Of a stretch of DNA of 64,000 nucleotides, positions 1-36,873 are shown piece after piece. Positions within the stretch are counted from its first letter, which is position 1. Each line of letters opens with the position of its first letter. The notes under the pieces were generated by a model. The model had not been told where the DNA came from. It saw only the letters and a program-made list of their open reading frames with translations, and did no database searches. Location: assembly GCF_003334765.1 (NCBI RefSeq), contig NZ_QOWT01000011.1, one strand, 5' to 3'. This DNA comes from Escherichia coli (GTDB taxonomy: Bacteria > Pseudomonadota > Gammaproteobacteria > Enterobacterales > Enterobacteriaceae). The position numbers and the translations under genes are program-made.

Positions 1-3000
1 CTGGGCGATATAGCCTGAAAGCGACGCGCCGACAGAACGGTCGGTGTTGCGAATATCGAACCAGAAGGTTTTGCTCTGGCGCTCATCGACAAACGGTTTC
101 GCCTGTTGCAGCAACTGCGCGTTCAGCAGGCCGTTATCAAACGGCGGGTTGTTTTCGGTGCAGTAGAGTGCCTTACCTGGATGCGGTTCGGCAGTCTCCA
201 GCAGCTTCGACAGCGCCAGCTTCTGCTGTTTGGCGGTGAAACCGTCCAGCTCTTTCAGCAGGTCGGTGCGACCAATCAGATCCACCAGACGTGTTACGCC
301 AAGCTGTGCCATCAGCTCGCGGGTTTCACGGGCGATAAACTCAAAGTAATTCGTCACCTTGAATGGCAGGCCGTGATAGTGGTTCTTACGCAGTTTGTCA
401 TCCTGAGTTGCTACACCCGTTGCGCAGTTGTTCAGATGGCAAATACGTAGATATTTACAGCCGAGCGCCACCATCGGGCCAGTGCCGAAGCCGAAGCTTT
501 CTGCGCCGAGAATCGCCGCCTTGATGATATCGACACCCGTTTTCAGGCCGCCATCGACCTGCAAACGGATCTTGTGACGCAAGCCGTTAGCAACCAGCGC
601 CTGCTGGGTTTCAACAAGCCCCAGCTCCCACGGACAGCCTGCGTATTTCACCGATGAAAGCGGACTTGCGCCGGTGCCGCCGTCATAGCCTGCGATGGTG
701 ATCAAGTCCGCATAAGCTTTTGCCACGCCAGTCGCGATGGTGCCTACTCCCGGTTCGGAAACCAGCTTCACGGAGATCATCGCTTTCGGGTTAACCTGCT
801 TGAGGTCGAAAATGAGCTGCGCTAAGTCCTCGATAGAGTAGATATCGTGGTGCGGCGGCGGGGAGATCAGCGTCACTCCGGGCACCGAATAGCGCAGTTT
901 GGCGATGTAAGGCGTGACTTTATCACCCGGCAACTGACCGCCTTCGCCTGGCTTCGCGCCCTGGGCGACTTTAATCTGAATGACGTCGGCATTGACCAGA
1001 TACGCCGGAGTAACCCCAAAGCGACCGGAAGCCACCTGCTTGATGCGCGACACTTTGTTGGTGCCGTAGCGCGCCGGGTCTTCGCCGCCTTCACCGGAGT
1101 TCGAATTACCGCCGATGCTGTTCATCGCTTCCGCCAGCGCCTCGTGGGCTTCCGGGCTTAACGCGCCGATAGACATCGCGGCGGTATCAAAGCGTTTAAA
1201 CAGTTCGCTTGCCGGTTCAACATCAGCAATGTTGACCGCGTTTTCACCCGGCGTAATTGCCAGCAGATCGCGCAGCGTGGTTGCCGGACGCTCATTAACC
1301 AGCTTCGCGTATTCCTGATAGTCGCTGTACTCGCCGCTTTGTACCGCTTGTTGCAGCGTGCGCACCACGTCCGGGTTGTAGGCGTGGTATTCGCCGCCGT
1401 GGACGTATTTCAGCAGACCGCCCTGGCTGATGGGCTTACGCGCCAGCCAGGCACGTTTCGACAGATTCAGCAGATCCTGCTGGAAGTCTTCAAAGCTTGC
1501 TCCACCAATGCGGCTGACCGCCCCCTGGAAGCACAGGCCCACTACATCATCGTGTAGACCGACCGCTTCAAACAGTTTCGAGCAGCGGTAAGAGGCGATG
1601 GTGGAGATGCCCATTTTGGACATGATTTTGTACAAGCCTTTGTTGATGCCGTTACGGTAGTTGAGCATCACGGTACGATAATCTTTGGCAATCGCATGGG
1701 TGTCTACCAGGCGGCCCAGCGTTTCATAGGCAAGGTATGGATAAATAGCCGTCGCGCCGAAGCCCAGCAACACGGCGAAGTGGTGCGGATCGCGGGCGCT
1801 GGCGGTTTCGACGATGATGTTGGCATCGCAACGCAGGCTTTGATCGACCAGACGGGTCTGGATCGCGCCAACCGCCATCGGGGCTGGAACCGGCAGGCGA
1901 TCTTTAGCGATATTCCGGTCGGAGAGCACCAGCAGCACGGTGCCGCTACGTACCATTTTTTCGGCTTTGTCGCACAGCTCTTTGACTGTCGCTTCGAGCG
2001 TGGTTTTAGTGACGTCAAAGGTGATATCCAGCGTATCTGCGCGGTAGTGCTCCTCTTTCATCGTCGTGAGCTGTTTGAAATCGGAGTAGAGCAGAATCGG
2101 CGATTTAAAGCTTAAACGGTGCGCCTGGCCCTCTGCTTCGCAAAAGACGTTCATTTCACGACCGATACTGGTGGCGAGCGACATAACATGCGCTTCACGC
2201 AGCGGGTCGATTGGCGGGTTAGTCACCTGGGCAAACTGCTGGCGGAAGTAGTCGTAAATAATGCGCGGCTGACTGGAGAGCACGGCGAATGGGGTATCAT
2301 CGCCCATCGAACCGACCGCTTCCTGACCGTTTTCGCCCAGTACGCGAATTACGGAGTCCAGCTCTTCCGCGCTGTAGTTAAACTGTTTCTGGTAGCTGGC
2401 AAGCGTGTCGTCGTCCAGTTCGCGGCTACCCACTTCTTCATCGGGCAGATCTTCAAACGGTACCAGTCGGCGGACGTTTTTCTCCATCCACTCTTTATAT
2501 GGATGGCGGCTTTTCAGATCGTCATCGGTTTCTGCCGAGTGCAGAATACGCCCACTGCGGGTGTCGATAACCATCAGTTCGCCTGGCCCGACGCGGCCTT
2601 TTTCGACCACTTCGTCAGGCTGGTAATCCCAGATACCGACTTCAGAGGCGCAGGTGATGAGCTTATCTTTGGTGATGACGTAGCGCGCCGGACGCAGACC
2701 GTTACGGTCGAGGTTACAGGCGGCAAAACGACCGTCGGACATCACGATGCCCGCCGGGCCATCCCACGGCTCCATATGCATGGAGTTAAAGTCAAAGAAG
2801 GCACGCAGTTCCGGGTCCATATCCGGGTTGTTCTGCCAGGCGGGTGGTACTAATAGACGCATGGCGCGGATGATATCCATCCCGCCTGCCAGCAGCAGTT
2901 CCAGCATGTTATCCATCGAACTGGAGTCAGAGCCGGTTTCGTTGACGAACGGTGCGGCGTCGTGCAGGTCAGGGATAAGCGGTGTCTGGAATTTATAAGT

Positions 3001-3855
3001 ACGCGCACGCGCCCATTGGCGGTTACCGGTGATGGTGTTGATTTCACCGTTATGCGCCAGATAGCGGAACGGTTGCGCCAGCGGCCAGCGCGGTACGGTG
3101 TTAGTGGAGAAGCGCTGGTGGAACAGGCAAATGGCCGATTCCAGACGCAGGTCCGCAAGATCCAGATAAAAGCGCGGCAGATCCGTCGGCATACACAGAC
3201 CTTTATAGATGTTCACCAGATTCGACAGGCTACAGACGTAGAAGTCTTTGTCGGCTTCGAGACGCTTTTCAATGCGGCGGCGGGCGATAAACAGACGGCG
3301 CTCCATATCGCGTGGACGCCAGCCTGCCGGGGCGTTCACAAAAATTTGCTCAATGCGTGGCAGAGAGGAGAGGGCGATTTCACCCAGCACGCCTTCGTTA
3401 GTGGGGACATCACGCCAGCCCACAATCGACAAGGTTTCGCGTTGCAGTTCTTCTTCAACGATGCGGCGTGCGGCAGCGGCGAGTTCAGGATCTTTATTCA
3501 GGAAGAGCATCCCGACAGCGTAGTTTTTTGCTAAACGCCAGCCGCGCTCCTGCGCAACGATGCGAAAAAAGCGATCCGGTTTTTGTAACAGCAAGCCGCA
3601 ACCGTCGCCGGTTTTACCATCGGCGAGAATCGCGCCACGGTGCTGCATGCGGGCCAGTGCGTGTATTGCAGTACGCACTACCTTGTGGCTAGGTTCGCCT
3701 TCTATGTGGGCGATCAGGCCGAAACCACAGTTATCCCTCTCAAGGGATTTATCGTACAACATATCGTGAACCTCCCCCAGGCTCTGCGGGAACCCCACTT
3801 CCGAACCGCTGCGCACGGGCACAGAAAGAGCGTGGCGACGGGGTTTGCGTGTCAT
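1..3855 (-). CDS. gltB: Glutamate synthase large subunit, 5' portion (3' end lies beyond window start)
   Basis: Reverse-strand ATG at 3853-3855 opens a frame reading MTRKPRRHALSVPVRSG...DNCGFGLIAHIEG (propeptide then Ntn-amidotransferase Cys); no minus-strand ORF ending in-window in the track, so the frame stays open to the edge. Confidence 0.9.
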   Translation of the reverse strand, partial: MTRKPRRHALSVPVRSGSEVGFPQSLGEVHDMLYDKSLERDNCGFGLIAHIEGEPSHKVVRTAIHALARMQHRGAILADGKTGDGCGLLLQKPDRFFRIVAQERGWRLAKNYAVGMLFLNKDPELAAAARRIVEEELQRETLSIVGWRDVPTNEGVLGEIALSSLPRIEQIFVNAPAGWRPRDMERRLFIARRRIEKRLEADKDFYVCSLSNLVNIYKGLCMPTDLPRFYLDLADLRLESAICLFHQRFSTNTVPRWPLAQPFRYLAHNGEINTITGNRQWARARTYKFQTPLIPDLHDAAPFVNETGSDSSSMDNMLELLLAGGMDIIRAMRLLVPPAWQNNPDMDPELRAFFDFNSMHMEPWDGPAGIVMSDGRFAACNLDRNGLRPARYVITKDKLITCASEVGIWDYQPDEVVEKGRVGPGELMVIDTRSGRILHSAETDDDLKSRHPYKEWMEKNVRRLVPFEDLPDEEVGSRELDDDTLASYQKQFNYSAEELDSVIRVLGENGQEAVGSMGDDTPFAVLSSQPRIIYDYFRQQFAQVTNPPIDPLREAHVMSLATSIGREMNVFCEAEGQAHRLSFKSPILLYSDFKQLTTMKEEHYRADTLDITFDVTKTTLEATVKELCDKAEKMVRSGTVLLVLSDRNIAKDRLPVPAPMAVGAIQTRLVDQSLRCDANIIVETASARDPHHFAVLLGFGATAIYPYLAYETLGRLVDTHAIAKDYRTVMLNYRNGINKGLYKIMSKMGISTIASYRCSKLFEAVGLHDDVVGLCFQGAVSRIGGASFEDFQQDLLNLSKRAWLARKPISQGGLLKYVHGGEYHAYNPDVVRTLQQAVQSGEYSDYQEYAKLVNERPATTLRDLLAITPGENAVNIADVEPASELFKRFDTAAMSIGALSPEAHEALAEAMNSIGGNSNSGEGGEDPARYGTNKVSRIKQVASGRFGVTPAYLVNADVIQIKVAQGAKPGEGGQLPGDKVTPYIAKLRYSVPGVTLISPPPHHDIYSIEDLAQLIFDLKQVNPKAMISVKLVSEPGVGTIATGVAKAYADLITIAGYDGGTGASPLSSVKYAGCPWELGLVETQQALVANGLRHKIRLQVDGGLKTGVDIIKAAILGAESFGFGTGPMVALGCKYLRICHLNNCATGVATQDDKLRKNHYHGLPFKVTNYFEFIARETRELMAQLGVTRLVDLIGRTDLLKELDGFTAKQQKLALSKLLETAEPHPGKALYCTENNPPFDNGLLNAQLLQQAKPFVDERQSKTFWFDIRNTDRSVGASLSGYIAQ

Positions 3856-4436
3856 ACGCGCGCCTCGCATTCGCCCCCTTGTTGTCCTTTTCGCATCGGT
3901 TAATACGGTGAAGAGGGGATCTCAATTACTGCATAAATATGATGAGCAGGCTGCTCATCCAGAAAGCTTCCAGCGGATTTCCAACTTATCGGGAAAGCTG
4001 ATACAGGTCAAATGGCAAGCTTATTGGTACAGAAATGTGCTTTAGCGCAAAATTCTTTATTAAATGACTGAAATTAAAATGGATTTCATCTTTAAGGCTA
4101 AAAGGGAAGTCGTTAGAGAAACAGTCAATTCCTGACTGTCATAAAGGTGTGTTAACCCTTATCCTGCCTTGAACTGACGACAAAACCAGCATTTTATACT
4201 GCCTTAATTGGTAATGACGTTTCATGCTACTGTTTTTGCCTAAAATCCATCAGGAGATAAAAAAATCTGACACAAGATAAGCAAAAGTGATTTATGTGAT
4301 TATGCATGAAATTTCGGTAATTTTGATTGATTATGCAGTTGATAAAAGCAGGCCGGGACGATTGATCCAGGTCATCGCCGAATTGAGCTAAAAATGGCAG
4401 GCTTTGGCCTCTTTTCAAGGCGCGGTCTATCAGATT

Positions 4437-5366
4437 ATGCAGTTACAGAAATTAGTCAATATGTTTGGTGGTGATCTCACCCGTCGTTATGGGCAAAAGG
4501 TGCATAAGCTGACGCTGCACGGCGGTTTTAGCTGCCCTAACCGTGACGGTACCATCGGGCGTGGTGGCTGCACATTCTGTAATGTTGCCTCGTTTGCCGA
4601 TGAAGCGCAGCAGCATCGTTCCATTGCCGAGCAACTGGCGCACCAGGCGAATTTAGTTAACCGCGCTAAACGCTATCTGGCCTACTTTCAGGCGTATACC
4701 AGCACCTTTGCGGAAGTTCAGGTGCTGCGTTCTATGTATCAGCAGGCGGTGAGCCAGGCCAATATTGTCGGTTTGTGTGTGGGTACCCGCCCGGACTGCG
4801 TGCCGGATGCGGTGCTGGATCTGCTTTGCGAATATAAGGACCAGGGTTACGAAGTGTGGCTGGAGCTGGGGCTACAAACCGCCCACGACAAAACACTGCA
4901 TCGCATCAACCGCGGCCATGATTTTGCCTGTTATCAGCGTACAACCCAGCTGGCACGTCAGCGCGGGCTGAAGGTGTGTTCCCACTTAATTGTCGGCCTG
5001 CCTGGCGAAGGGCAGGCTGAATGTTTGCAAACGCTGGAGCGAGTGGTTGAAACCGGCGTGGACGGCATAAAGCTGCATCCGCTGCATATTGTGAAAGGCA
5101 GCATTATGGCGAAAGCCTGGGAAGCGGGGCGTTTGAACGGTATTGAACTGGAGGATTACACGCTCACTGCCGGAGAAATGATTCGCCATACGCCACCGGA
5201 AGTGATCTACCACCGCATTTCCGCCAGCGCCCGTCGCCCGACGCTGCTTGCTCCGCTGTGGTGCGAAAATCGATGGACGGGAATGGTCGAGCTGGATCGC
5301 TATCTGAATGAACATGGCGTACAGGGATCGGCGCTGGGACGTCCGTGGCTACCTCCAACGGAGTAG
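4437..5366 (+). CDS. yhcC: Radical SAM family protein YhcC (function unknown)
   Basis: ORF 4404-5366; product from internal Met MQLQKLVNMFGG... (309 aa) with Cys-rich radical-SAM-like segment GGFSCPNRDGTIGRGGCTFC. Confidence 0.85.
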   Translation: MQLQKLVNMFGGDLTRRYGQKVHKLTLHGGFSCPNRDGTIGRGGCTFCNVASFADEAQQHRSIAEQLAHQANLVNRAKRYLAYFQAYTSTFAEVQVLRSMYQQAVSQANIVGLCVGTRPDCVPDAVLDLLCEYKDQGYEVWLELGLQTAHDKTLHRINRGHDFACYQRTTQLARQRGLKVCSHLIVGLPGEGQAECLQTLERVVETGVDGIKLHPLHIVKGSIMAKAWEAGRLNGIELEDYTLTAGEMIRHTPPEVIYHRISASARRPTLLAPLWCENRWTGMVELDRYLNEHGVQGSALGRPWLPPTE

Positions 5367-5461: not shown

Positions 5462-7798
5462 ATGAAGCAAATTCGTCTGCTGGCGCAGTATTATGTTGAC
5501 CTGATGATGAAGTTAGGTCTGGTGCGCTTCTCAATGTTGCTGGCGCTGGCCCTCGTCGTTCTTGCCATTGTGGTACAAATGGCGGTAACCATGGTGCTGC
5601 ATGGTCAGGTCGAAAGCATTGATGTTATTCGTTCTATCTTCTTTGGTTTGCTGATTACGCCGTGGGCGGTCTACTTTCTATCGGTGGTCGTCGAGCAACT
5701 GGAGGAGTCACGACAACGTCTGTCACGGCTGGTGCAAAAACTGGAGGAGATGCGCGAGCGCGATTTGAGCCTCAACGTTCAGTTAAAAGATAATATTGCC
5801 CAGCTAAATCAGGAAATTGCCGTTCGTGAAAAAGCGGAAGCAGAACTGCAGGAAACCTTCGGCCAACTGAAAATTGAAATCAAAGAGCGCGAAGAGACAC
5901 AAATTCAGCTCGAGCAGCAATCCTCATTCTTACGTTCCTTCCTTGATGCTTCACCCGACCTGGTTTTTTATCGTAACGAAGATAAAGAGTTTTCCGGCTG
6001 TAACCGCGCGATGGAGCTGCTGACCGGAAAAAGCGAAAAACAACTGGTTCACCTGAAACCTGCTGATGTTTACTCACCGGAAGCCGCCGCAAAAGTCATT
6101 GAAACCGATGAAAAAGTGTTCCGTCATAATGTGTCACTGACCTATGAACAGTGGCTGGATTACCCGGATGGGCGCAAAGCCTGCTTTGAAATCCGTAAAG
6201 TGCCGTACTACGACCGCGTGGGTAAACGTCACGGTTTGATGGGCTTTGGTCGCGACATTACCGAGCGTAAGCGGTATCAGGATGCGCTTGAACGGGCCAG
6301 CCGCGACAAAACGACGTTTATCTCCACCATCAGTCACGAATTGCGTACACCGCTGAACGGTATCGTCGGTCTGAGCCGCATTCTGCTGGATACCGAACTC
6401 ACCGCCGAGCAGGAAAAATATCTCAAGACCATCCATGTTTCGGCCGTCACGCTGGGGAATATCTTTAACGATATTATCGACATGGATAAGATGGAACGGC
6501 GCAAGGTCCAGCTTGATAATCAACCGGTTGATTTCACCAGCTTCCTTGCCGATCTGGAAAATCTCTCCGCATTGCAGGCGCAACAAAAAGGATTGCGCTT
6601 TAACCTGGAGCCGACGCTGCCATTACCGCATCAGGTCATTACCGACGGGACGCGTTTACGGCAGATCCTGTGGAACCTCATCAGTAACGCCGTCAAATTC
6701 ACCCAGCAAGGCCAGGTTACCGTGCGCGTGCGCTACGATGAAGGCGATATGCTGCATTTTGAAGTGGAAGACTCTGGTATCGGCATTCCGCAGGATGAGC
6801 TGGATAAAATTTTCGCCATGTATTACCAGGTGAAAGACAGTCATGGCGGTAAACCTGCCACCGGCACCGGTATTGGTCTGGCCGTTTCTCGTCGTCTGGC
6901 GAAAAATATGGGCGGCGATATTACGGTTACCAGCGAACAGGGCAAAGGTTCAACCTTTACGTTGACGATCCACGCACCGTCGGTAGCAGAAGAGGTCGAT
7001 GATGCGTTTGATGAAGACGATATGCCTTTACCGGCGCTGAATGTGCTGCTGGTGGAAGACATTGAACTGAACGTGATTGTTGCGCGTTCTGTGCTGGAAA
7101 AATTAGGTAACAGCGTTGATGTCGCCATGACCGGCAAGGCGGCGCTGGAGATGTTTAAACCGGGCGAATACGACCTGGTGTTGCTGGATATTCAGTTGCC
7201 AGATATGACCGGGCTGGATATCTCTCGTGAACTGACGAAACGTTATCCGCGCGAGGATTTACCGCCGCTGGTGGCCTTAACCGCTAACGTGCTGAAAGAC
7301 AAACAAGAGTACCTCAATGCTGGAATGGATGATGTGCTGAGTAAGCCGCTTTCTGTTCCGGCGCTAACCGCGATGATCAAGAAATTCTGGGATACCCAGG
7401 ATGATGAGGAGAGTACGATGACGACAGAAGAGAACAGTAAATCAGAAGCATTGCTCGATATTCCCATGCTGGAACAGTATCTCGAACTTGTAGGACCGAA
7501 GCTGATCACCGACGGGTTAGCGGTGTTTGAGAAGATGATGCCGGGCTATGTCAGCGTGCTGGAGTCGAATCTGACGGCGCAGGATAAAAAAGGCATTGTT
7601 GAGGAAGGACATAAAATTAAAGGTGCGGCGGGGTCAGTGGGGTTACGCCATCTGCAACAGCTGGGTCAGCAAATTCAGTCTCCTGACCTTCCGGCCTGGG
7701 AAGATAACGTCGGTGAATGGATTGAAGAGATGAAAGAAGAGTGGCGTCACGACGTAGAAGTGCTGAAAGCGTGGGTGGCAAAAGCCACTAAAAAATGA
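5462..7798 (+). CDS. arcB: Aerobic respiration control sensor histidine kinase ArcB (778 aa)
   Basis: Full-length ORF; H-box ISHELRTPLNG, receiver and HPt domains; matches ArcB. Confidence 0.95.
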   Translation: MKQIRLLAQYYVDLMMKLGLVRFSMLLALALVVLAIVVQMAVTMVLHGQVESIDVIRSIFFGLLITPWAVYFLSVVVEQLEESRQRLSRLVQKLEEMRERDLSLNVQLKDNIAQLNQEIAVREKAEAELQETFGQLKIEIKEREETQIQLEQQSSFLRSFLDASPDLVFYRNEDKEFSGCNRAMELLTGKSEKQLVHLKPADVYSPEAAAKVIETDEKVFRHNVSLTYEQWLDYPDGRKACFEIRKVPYYDRVGKRHGLMGFGRDITERKRYQDALERASRDKTTFISTISHELRTPLNGIVGLSRILLDTELTAEQEKYLKTIHVSAVTLGNIFNDIIDMDKMERRKVQLDNQPVDFTSFLADLENLSALQAQQKGLRFNLEPTLPLPHQVITDGTRLRQILWNLISNAVKFTQQGQVTVRVRYDEGDMLHFEVEDSGIGIPQDELDKIFAMYYQVKDSHGGKPATGTGIGLAVSRRLAKNMGGDITVTSEQGKGSTFTLTIHAPSVAEEVDDAFDEDDMPLPALNVLLVEDIELNVIVARSVLEKLGNSVDVAMTGKAALEMFKPGEYDLVLLDIQLPDMTGLDISRELTKRYPREDLPPLVALTANVLKDKQEYLNAGMDDVLSKPLSVPALTAMIKKFWDTQDDEESTMTTEENSKSEALLDIPMLEQYLELVGPKLITDGLAVFEKMMPGYVSVLESNLTAQDKKGIVEEGHKIKGAAGSVGLRHLQQLGQQIQSPDLPAWEDNVGEWIEEMKEEWRHDVEVLKAWVAKATKK

Positions 7799-7910
7799 CC
7801 CCGGCTAGACCGGGGTGCGCGAATACTGCGCCAACACCAGGGAAATCTTGGCTGCGCCGTAAATTATTATGATGAGTTACAAGGGCACAGCACTGTTTTT
7901 CAGGCCGCAC
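7790..7910 (-). ncRNA. arcZ: ArcZ small RNA (SraH/RyhA), convergent with arcB
   Basis: Reverse complement reads GTGCGGCCTGAAAAACAGTGCTGTGCCC...GCGCACCCCGGTCTAGCCGGGGTCATTTTTT; terminator hairpin plus U-run overlaps the arcB stop codon (7796-7798). Confidence 0.8.
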
Positions 7911-36328: not shown

Positions 36329-36415
36329 GCCGAGGTGGTGGAATTGGTAGACACGCTACCTTGAGGTGGTAGTGCCCAATAGGGCTTACGGGTTCAAGTC
36401 CCGTCCTCGGTACCA
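36329..36415 (+). tRNA. leuU: tRNA-Leu (anticodon GAG), co-transcribed with secG
   Basis: GCCGAGGTGGTGGAATTGGTAGACACGCTACCTTGAGGTGGTAG...CCTCGGTACCA; long variable arm, anticodon loop TTGAGGT, encoded CCA. Confidence 0.9.
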
Positions 36416-36429
36416 AATTCCAGAAAAGA

Positions 36430-36451
36430 GACGCTGAAAAGCGTCTTTTTT
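36430..36451 (+). terminator. Intrinsic terminator of the secG-leuU transcript
   Basis: GACGCTGAAAAGCGTC hairpin followed by TTTTTT. Confidence 0.6.
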
Positions 36452-36873
36452 CGTTTTGGTCCTGGTCTGAGGAATGGTTGTCAGGTATCTGTATCTCGTC
36501 CAGTTGCTTTACTCGTAGCTGGTACCTTGAAACGATGGTGCCGGTACGCCTTAGTTATAAATTTTTCCCTTCTACTGACATAATTGGCACTTTATTGTGT
36601 CAACTCCAGTTCCGGTACGAATACGGATATGTTTACTTCTCGATAAACCATCCTGCTCCTGTCAGTATAACGACTGATGGCTACGTTCTGCGTAATGTTT
36701 AGAGACGCATTGATAATGTTATTTAATTACTGAGAACGCAATGGCCGCATCATTTAAAAAGAAAAAACTAACAGTGTTTCGTTCTGATATGGATCAGAGT
36801 TGAAAAACATGTCTGATATAAAATTAAACATTGTTGATAATTGTTTATATTGGTTGTGAACTTGGATTTCTGG

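Follow-up and report, generated by a model that had tools for sequence, protein, structure and literature searches.

The window analysed, a 64,000-nucleotide stretch of Escherichia coli DNA (contig NZ_QOWT01000011.1, assembly GCF_003334765.1), carries at its left end the 5' part of the gltB coding sequence (1-3762, minus strand), the rest of which lies beyond the window start, and next to it the divergently oriented coding sequence of yhcC, now named mnmL, a radical SAM protein (4437-5366, plus strand). arcB (5462-7798) and ArcZ (7803-7910, minus strand) lie further to the right. Of 5426 complete E. coli genomes, 5417 contained a match to the segment 3700-4600 (95-100% identity), and the annotation beneath those matches was gltB and yhcC; the divergent arrangement of the two genes proposed in the initial annotation was thus borne out by annotation and genome matches alike. 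The window is oriented as the reverse complement of MG1655. In the alignment the MG1655 spacer at 3354051-3354724 corresponded to window positions 3763-4436 and was identical at 673 of 674 bases with no indels, the sole mismatch (4087) lying inside the published IHF footprint. Since there were no indels, MG1655 positions could be converted exactly to window coordinates using w = 3762 + (3354725 − K12).

The gltB start codon was placed at the ATG at 3762-3760 (minus strand; MLYDKSLERDNC...) on the basis of the MG1655 annotation (start 3354725) and the conserved N-terminus MLYDKSLE, which was kept in all 77 other Enterobacteriaceae. An in-frame ATG located 93 nt upstream of this conserved start (3853-3855, minus strand) belongs to an outdated annotation of gltB as a 1517-aa protein. 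The reading frame from the ATG at 3855 to MLYDK was interrupted by stops or frameshifts in most genera (Citrobacter, Kluyvera, Salmonella, Klebsiella, Enterobacter and others). The gltB start was therefore taken as 3762 and not 3855, which makes the spacer between yhcC and gltB 674 bp long; the length of 581 bp given earlier (3856-4436) had rested on the ATG at 3855 and is superseded. For annotation purposes this fixes the gltB start at 3762 and allows the leader, the promoter core and the upstream region to be told apart.

The base composition of the spacer was compared with that of the whole window. The GC content of 3856-4436 was 40.6%. Across the 581-bp windows of the whole stretch the average was 51.9% (sd 3.7%), and only 1.7% of them were as low. 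The same interval contained 14 runs of at least four A or T residues, whereas composition-matched shuffles gave 6.3±2.3 (P=0.002). By these window and shuffle statistics the AT-richness and the multiple A/T tracts that had been noted from the sequence are real and beyond chance. The strong AT-richness holds for the interval overall and not uniformly: it was confined to a core at approximately 3979-4340 (GC 34.5%), while the flanks were ordinary in GC, at about 57% in the leader (3763-3978) and 50% in the yhcC-proximal part (4341-4436).

Conservation was determined by scanning one genome per species for yhcC orthologues; 80 loci were kept, and gltB was found divergently upstream of yhcC in 77 of these, with a spacer of 656-688 bp. 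Forty-five representatives less than 90% identical in the spacer were used for column conservation. The core upstream of the promoter had a GC content of 33-41% in all 45 representatives, and only about 40% of its positions matched E. coli across them. Within the AT-rich core, islands of conservation were seen at 4129-4139, 4187-4201 and 4229-4238, in the cores of the ARG boxes and in the left Crp half-site. From these sequence comparisons we infer that selection may have acted on composition and architecture more than on exact sequence. Low GC kept with little sequence identity fits DNA that is bent and wrapped by nucleoid-associated proteins, and the conserved AT-richness would then reflect a need for bendable DNA bound by nucleoid proteins, not for a particular sequence. 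The right Crp half-site and the IHF region were poorly conserved outside Escherichia, so the detailed architecture may be specific to Escherichia.

The sigma-70 core promoter of gltBDF (3983-4011, minus strand) was read from the sequence as a -35 hexamer TTGACC (4011-4006), a 17-bp spacer and a -10 hexamer TAAGTT (3988-3983). It was conserved, and TAAGTT or TAATTT was also present at the -10 position in Yersinia and Plesiomonas. A consensus promoter scan of 3700-4500 returned no promoter, and all three promoters located here (gltBDF, yhcC and the candidate sRNA G0-10702) must therefore deviate from the consensus; for gltBDF a score below the scan threshold is what would be expected of an activator-dependent promoter. 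With the CRP match at 4033-4054 as anchor, the +1 of Paul et al. (2007) was placed at approximately 3978, and the position of the -10 hexamer favoured a start at 3976. The range 3976-3978 was used throughout; the gltB transcription start site (TSS) is uncertain by a few bases, as the value of -399.5 in the FNR paper implies a start at 3969.

Published footprints for the gltBDF promoter (Paul et al. 2007, PMC1784095) were converted to window coordinates using the Crp site as anchor, and the spacer was scanned with consensus sequences scored against 200 shuffles. The footprints comprise Crp-cAMP centred at -65.5 (site -76 to -55), IHF between -75 and -113, three Lrp sites with their centres at -152, -215 and -246, and ArgR from -361 to -318 (PMC1784095). 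The published primers gltP1 and gltP2 were located at 4276-4304 and 3972-3991, and the mutagenic primer gltcrp1, which was directed at the Crp site, covers 4015-4071.

The repressing Crp-cAMP site was assigned to 4033-4054 from the CRP consensus, the published footprint and the overlap with gltcrp1. This was the best match to the CRP 22-mer in the whole spacer (6 mismatches; 1 of 200 shuffles as good), and its conservation was limited to the left half-site (0.85 vs 0.36 for the right). The converted IHF footprint spans 4053-4091. The consensus scan gave an IHF-like core, TTTCAGTCATTTA, at 4061-4073; with its 2 mismatches this match does not exceed chance, and conservation of the region was low (0.43). 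The Lrp-binding region occupies 4123-4231, with the published centres falling at approximately 4130 (-152), 4193 (-215) and 4224 (-246). The best match to the Lrp consensus, at 4187-4201, coincided with the -215 site (1 mismatch; 5 of 200 shuffles as good); the sites at -152 and -246 gave no strong consensus match, and the conservation islands 4129-4139 and 4229-4238 were found there. The ArgR operator (4296-4339) was taken from the published footprint and contains two ARG boxes spaced 21 bp apart, at 4301-4318 and 4322-4339, which form a direct repeat (D1); both lie inside the converted footprint, the second at its edge. The best ARG-box match was the one at 4322-4339 (3 mismatches), which is not significant alone, with 52 of 200 shuffles as good. 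The ARG-box cores TGCAT/ATTCA were conserved in the 45 genomes, and an enrichment of about 60-fold has been measured for ArgR by ChIP-qPCR (PMC4381063).

All converted Crp, IHF, Lrp and ArgR sites fell within the AT-rich core. The best CRP, Lrp and ARG-box matches were thus recovered at the published positions by the motif scan that had been suggested as a check, and the comparison with published gltB footprints, suggested likewise, placed every one of the four sets of sites inside the interval. The consensus scores for IHF, FNR and the ARG boxes did not rise above chance, so it is the published footprints and ChIP data that support these assignments.

Together these data identify the locus, with a probability of approximately 0.92, as the divergent yhcC(mnmL)-gltB intergenic region, the AT-rich core of which is the known activating and repressing upstream region of gltBDF. 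The earlier suggestion of an Lrp/IHF-type gltBDF control region stands, in view of the identity with MG1655 and of the published oligonucleotides and footprints that map inside it. It applies to less than the whole interval: the AT-rich core (~3979-4340) is upstream control DNA, 3856 to ~3978 is transcribed leader, and 4341-4436 holds the yhcC promoter. The region is the same locus as PgltB of E. coli K-12 (Ernsting 1993, Wiese 1997, Paul 2001/2007), from which it differs in nothing essential, the one changed base at 4087 included. It is already known and well studied, and as such is an ordinary feature.

According to the literature the sigma-70 promoter of gltBDF is weak and is barely used by RNA polymerase on its own. 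Lrp bound to three sites 150-250 bp upstream, together with IHF at -75 to -113, is reported to activate it more than 30-fold; a value of 25-40-fold has been given for activation by Lrp (PMC2374795). In the model proposed by the authors of PMC1784095, bending of the DNA by IHF would allow the Lrp complex to contact the polymerase. Crp-cAMP at -65.5 represses and keeps the polymerase in an unproductive complex, and arginine-bound ArgR on the two ARG boxes (-361 to -318) approximately halves expression, both as described in the literature. Promoters of the ilvIH type use multiple phased upstream Lrp sites and a wrapped activating complex, and resemble gltBDF in that a weak sigma-70 promoter is preceded by AT-rich DNA carrying several Lrp sites. 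Unlike these, Lrp at gltBDF acts from more than 150 bp away, requires IHF as co-activator and is insensitive to leucine (PMC1784095).

The yhcC end of the spacer was found to hold another pair of promoters, placed face to face, together with an FNR site and an sRNA whose status is disputed. The yhcC TSS at MG1655 3354077 (PMC7967276 supplement) converts to 4410, giving yhcC a 5' untranslated region of 4410-4436 (plus strand). An FNR ChIP-chip site (Grainger et al., PMC1802558) lies at 4357-4380, with the core TTGATccagGTCAT at 4362-4375. The paper gives occupancy only and states the position relative to yhcC as unknown (PMC1802558); by our calculation the centre, 4368.5, lies 41.5 bp ahead of the yhcC TSS (-41.5), a class II position. 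Fifteen of the 24 columns of the site were invariant, and the core had 8 of 10 consensus matches, which alone is not above chance. The site resembles class II FNR promoters in carrying an FNR half-consensus, TTGAT-N4-GTCAT, in being bound in ChIP-chip and in being centred 41.5 bp upstream of a TSS. It differs from them in that the class II box is TTGAT-N4-ATCAA, of which the yhcC core matches only 8 of 10 positions; the site is known here from ChIP-chip occupancy and position.

The candidate sRNA G0-10702 (Raghavan 2011) is encoded on the opposite strand at 4318-4423 (minus strand; MG1655 3354064-3354169(+), PMC7967276 supplementary file 1), with its TSS at the G at 4423 and a Term-seq 3' end within it at MG1655 3354141 (window 4346). 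These coordinates, strand and TSS coincide with those of the RNA of Raghavan 2011 and of 'as-yhcC' of Bilusic 2014. The predicted promoter, read from the sequence as TTGACT-16 nt-TAATCT (4432-4459, minus strand), lies over the yhcC start and first codons and ends 9 nt upstream of the TSS. With starts at 4423 (minus) and 4410 (plus), the G0-10702 and yhcC RNAs share a 14-nt overlap of their 5' ends. As a hypothesis, the two promoters would form a face-to-face pair in which transcription of G0-10702 and of yhcC may interfere mutually.

The gltB 5' untranslated leader, of approximately 214-216 nt (3763-3978, minus strand), was delimited by the TSS derived from the Crp centre at -65.5 and from the -10 position. 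Its conservation was block-wise. The Shine-Dalgarno sequence GGGGGAGG (3771-3778, minus strand), read from the sequence, is located 8 nt before the ATG, and its surroundings, CGCAGAGCCTGGGGAGGTTCAC, were invariant in the 45 representatives. At the other end, the first ~66 nt of the leader (3913-3978, minus strand) had 40 of 66 columns invariant and a mean identity of 0.95, and together with the core promoter it was better conserved than any other block in the spacer; its motifs recurred in Yersinia, Mixta and Cronobacter and, in part, in Plesiomonas. Embedded in this block is a hairpin, P1, GAUGAGCAG-CC-UGCUCAUC (3941-3959, minus strand; approximately +18 to +37 of the mRNA), identified by covariation. 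A second hairpin, P2 (3826-3880, minus strand), identified using RNAalifold and pair counts, is formed by AAGGGGGCGAAUGCGAGG... paired with ...CCCCGUCGCCACGCUCUU and has a variable apex.

A boxA-like motif, GCUCUUUC at 3831-3824, matched the single-stranded GCUCUUUA core of the rrn/lambda-type boxA (Nus factor) element at 7 of 8 positions. In Citrobacter, Kluyvera and Salmonella a G takes the place of its seventh U, and by prediction the motif is paired within P2; on balance a boxA element in the leader is rather doubtful. Oliver et al. in 1987 are said to have noted a resemblance of the leader to an rrn leader. No description of the leader structure was found in the literature searched, the older leader papers (Oliver 1987, Velázquez 1991) being outside its scope.

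Three other readings of the spacer were weighed against the gltBDF control region. The AT-rich stretch might be horizontally acquired or mobile-element DNA, or hide a small protein gene; the core GC of 34.5% is foreign-like, and several ORFs of 20-66 aa are present in the interval, where they arise mechanically. Against this, the gene arrangement, the spacer length of 656-688 bp and the low GC are common to 77 Enterobacteriaceae genomes. The repeat search found no long repeats or terminal inverted repeats in the interval, and a mobile or repeat element was rejected since the repeats there were short and at chance level only. Ten ORFs of at least 20 aa overlapping the interval were checked in 44 diverged genomes, and each was intact in just 0-2 of them, in agreement with the initial view that no convincing ORF is present. 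The tiny AUG-CAG-UAA at 3934-3926 is invariant and was rejected as a mini-ORF, having no Shine-Dalgarno sequence and varying in length in Phytobacter, Trabulsiella and Plesiomonas. A foreign or protein-coding origin is thus very improbable and effectively already refuted. The finding that had been named as evidence against a control region was a conserved small ORF or an sRNA occupying the DNA instead. There is no such ORF, and the candidate sRNA at 4423-4318 flanks the Lrp/IHF architecture rather than taking its place. For 4318-4436 the sRNA nevertheless bears on a reading of its own, in which this end is mainly a functional Hfq-dependent G0-10702 whose constitutive promoter would interfere with yhcC, FNR activating yhcC and blocking the sRNA. 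This is credible at somewhat less than even odds. The FNR site at -41.5 and the 14-nt overlap of the published transcripts suit it, as does the report of an abundant sRNA and a barely detectable yhcC. Raghavan et al. (2011) are reported to have described an Hfq-dependent sRNA in the yhcC-gltB spacer, and Bilusic et al. (2014) an Hfq-enriched interval, 'as-yhcC', over G0-10702. The promoter motifs TTGACT-16-TAATCT were invariant in the 45 genomes, and synonymous-codon identity in yhcC was 0.96 in codons 2-10 vs 0.58 in codons 11-90. The freezing of codons 2-10 points to an overlapping non-coding constraint, to which the start-codon context may contribute. By eye, every genus showed a 5' stem-loop; its stem differed in sequence from genus to genus and included G·U pairs that suit the minus strand only. 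On the other side, RNAalifold gave no double-sided changes on an automatic alignment, and the fold was no better than that of shuffles. The 5' 65 nt were conserved while the 3' part, the last third, was not. No Rho-independent terminator was found on the minus strand of 4318-4423, nor a conserved terminal hairpin, and the lack of a terminator has also been noted in the literature. G0-10702 differs in this from typical Hfq sRNAs, as it does in having no known target and a disputed status: EcoCyc dropped the entry in 2019 because the evidence was insufficient, but dRNA-seq is said to have confirmed its TSS. A pairing of G0-10702 with the gltB leader was rejected, 88% of shuffled sRNAs being as good. 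The conservation could also be explained by the yhcC promoter, the FNR site and the start-codon context alone.

The third reading concerns the conserved leader (3978 to 3763), which might be a cis-regulatory RNA working by attenuation, through mRNA stability or as an operator for a protein or sRNA, beside the promoter control; this reading would supplement the promoter explanation, not supplant it, and is regarded as possible though rather unlikely. It is favoured by the near-invariance of the first ~66 nt in 45 diverged genomes and by P1. Compensatory changes were present at 4 of its 8 pairs, and all 33 distinct variants, from 82 genomes, folded to a hairpin of 6-8 bp in the same place, the Yersinia stem (CUAGACG/CGUCUAG) being unrelated in sequence. 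Such a compensatory pattern indicates structure at the RNA level and not an inverted repeat bound by a protein. P2 showed some covariation (an upper-stem pair, UA25/CG10), and an RNA 3' end mapped by Term-seq at MG1655 3354657(+) (Adams et al. 2021, supplementary file 1) converts to 3830, at the 3' foot of P2. Over the whole predicted leader structure 11 double-changed pairs were counted, vs 2.6±1.1 in shuffles (0 of 500 as many). The published gltB fusions run from -406 or -270 to +246 (PMC1784095). With these end points, the leader was always included in them and the G0-10702 promoter always absent, so any post-initiation control of gltB would have been missed. The opposing evidence begins with the overall fold: the stability of the E. 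coli leader was no better than that of shuffles (z = -0.03), and unusually stable whole folds were not supported for the leader or G0-10702 (z = -0.03, 0.82 and 0.17), support being confined to local hairpins. RNAalifold also predicted that the start of the mRNA pairs with the Shine-Dalgarno sequence; this was not supported either, having no covariation and being equalled by 46% of shuffled 5' segments. Rfam covariance models, glutamine riboswitches included, gave no match, the hits being far below threshold only (SQ1002 at 19.2 bits vs a gathering threshold of 128, SNORD51 and the hairpin ribozyme). Adams et al. supplementary file 2 calls no region of Rho termination in the leader. The RNA has no known ligand or partner, and its invariant flanks could instead be DNA-level signals.

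The stabilising stem-loop of ompA-type leaders sits at the 5' end of the mRNA. The gltB leader resembles such leader hairpins, and attenuators, in having a covarying hairpin early in a long leader, within which an RNA 3' end also lies. It differs from the ompA type in that P1 begins only some 18 nt into the transcript, the flanks are more conserved than the stem, and no Rfam family corresponds to it. The covarying P1 within the near-invariant start of the gltB leader is possibly new.

As a textbook promoter under multiple global regulators (Lrp, IHF, Crp and ArgR), the gltBDF control region has little value as a discovery, and the leader is the only part of the locus that might open something new. 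Tentatively, and with rather low probability, the first ~66 nt with P1, and P2 with its 3' end, may form an undescribed, deeply conserved leader module, extending from Escherichia to Yersinia and the Erwiniaceae, that would control glutamate synthase after transcription initiation through attenuation, RNA stability or the binding of a protein or sRNA. The pathway of the gltB product, GS/GOGAT, has been estimated to account for 15% of ATP turnover (PMC1784095), and it is the synthesis of this enzyme on which such a module would act.

Two competing start codons are in use for gltB, window 3853-3855 versus 3760-3762. The former, which yields a protein of 1517 aa, is the older and persists in the annotation underlying the tables of Adams et al. 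2021, while the current RefSeq entry uses the latter (1486 aa). Comparative sequence data support only the downstream codon (3760-3762).

The gltB leader (3763-3978, minus strand) was nearly invariant across the Enterobacteriaceae over its first ~66 nt (3913-3978, minus strand). Pairing of its hairpin (3959-3941) was preserved by compensatory changes (33 variants; 82 genomes compared), and in Yersinia the stem sequence was unrelated to the other versions. The leader (3763-3978, minus strand) was searched against Rfam and no family was matched. An additional small hairpin, AGCAAGUCCUCAAACUUGUUU, was present in the leader of most genera (alignment columns ~105-125), at a position falling between window 3905 and 3912; Escherichia and Salmonella were without it. 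In Providencia stuartii (locus L082) and Mixta (locus L086), arcB was located directly upstream of gltB with yhcC absent between them. In Mixta, gltB still had a promoter and leader of the E. coli type, while its upstream region in Providencia was unrelated.

Across the 674-bp spacer between gltB and yhcC (3763-4436), the sole difference from MG1655 was C against T at window 4087, within the IHF footprint (4053-4091). The lowest GC of the entire window, about 37%, was located at approximately 36400-37400 (581-bp windows starting at 36411-36821) and was below that of the gltB control region. In the wider neighborhood, the ArcZ sRNA was identified at 7803-7910 on the minus strand (Rfam RF00081, 120.8 bits, E = 3.8e-28), adjoining arcB as in the MG1655 annotation.

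The yhcC end of the spacer carries G0-10702, a published but disputed sRNA which, together with its promoter, occupies 4318-4459 on the minus strand. The predicted promoter was invariant and overlaps the yhcC start codon; synonymous sites in yhcC codons 2-10 were nearly frozen (0.96 versus 0.58 further into the gene). Within G0-10702, Term-seq placed an RNA 3' end at 4346 (minus strand), 7 nt ahead of the first ARG box of the ArgR operator (4339). Speculatively, this end might reflect a roadblock from bound ArgR rather than a terminator.

The FNR ChIP-chip site at 4357-4380 lies upstream of yhcC (mnmL), its center exactly 41.5 bp from the published transcription start at 4410. This spacing suggests that yhcC, a radical-SAM, tRNA-modification gene, is transcribed from a class II FNR-activated promoter.
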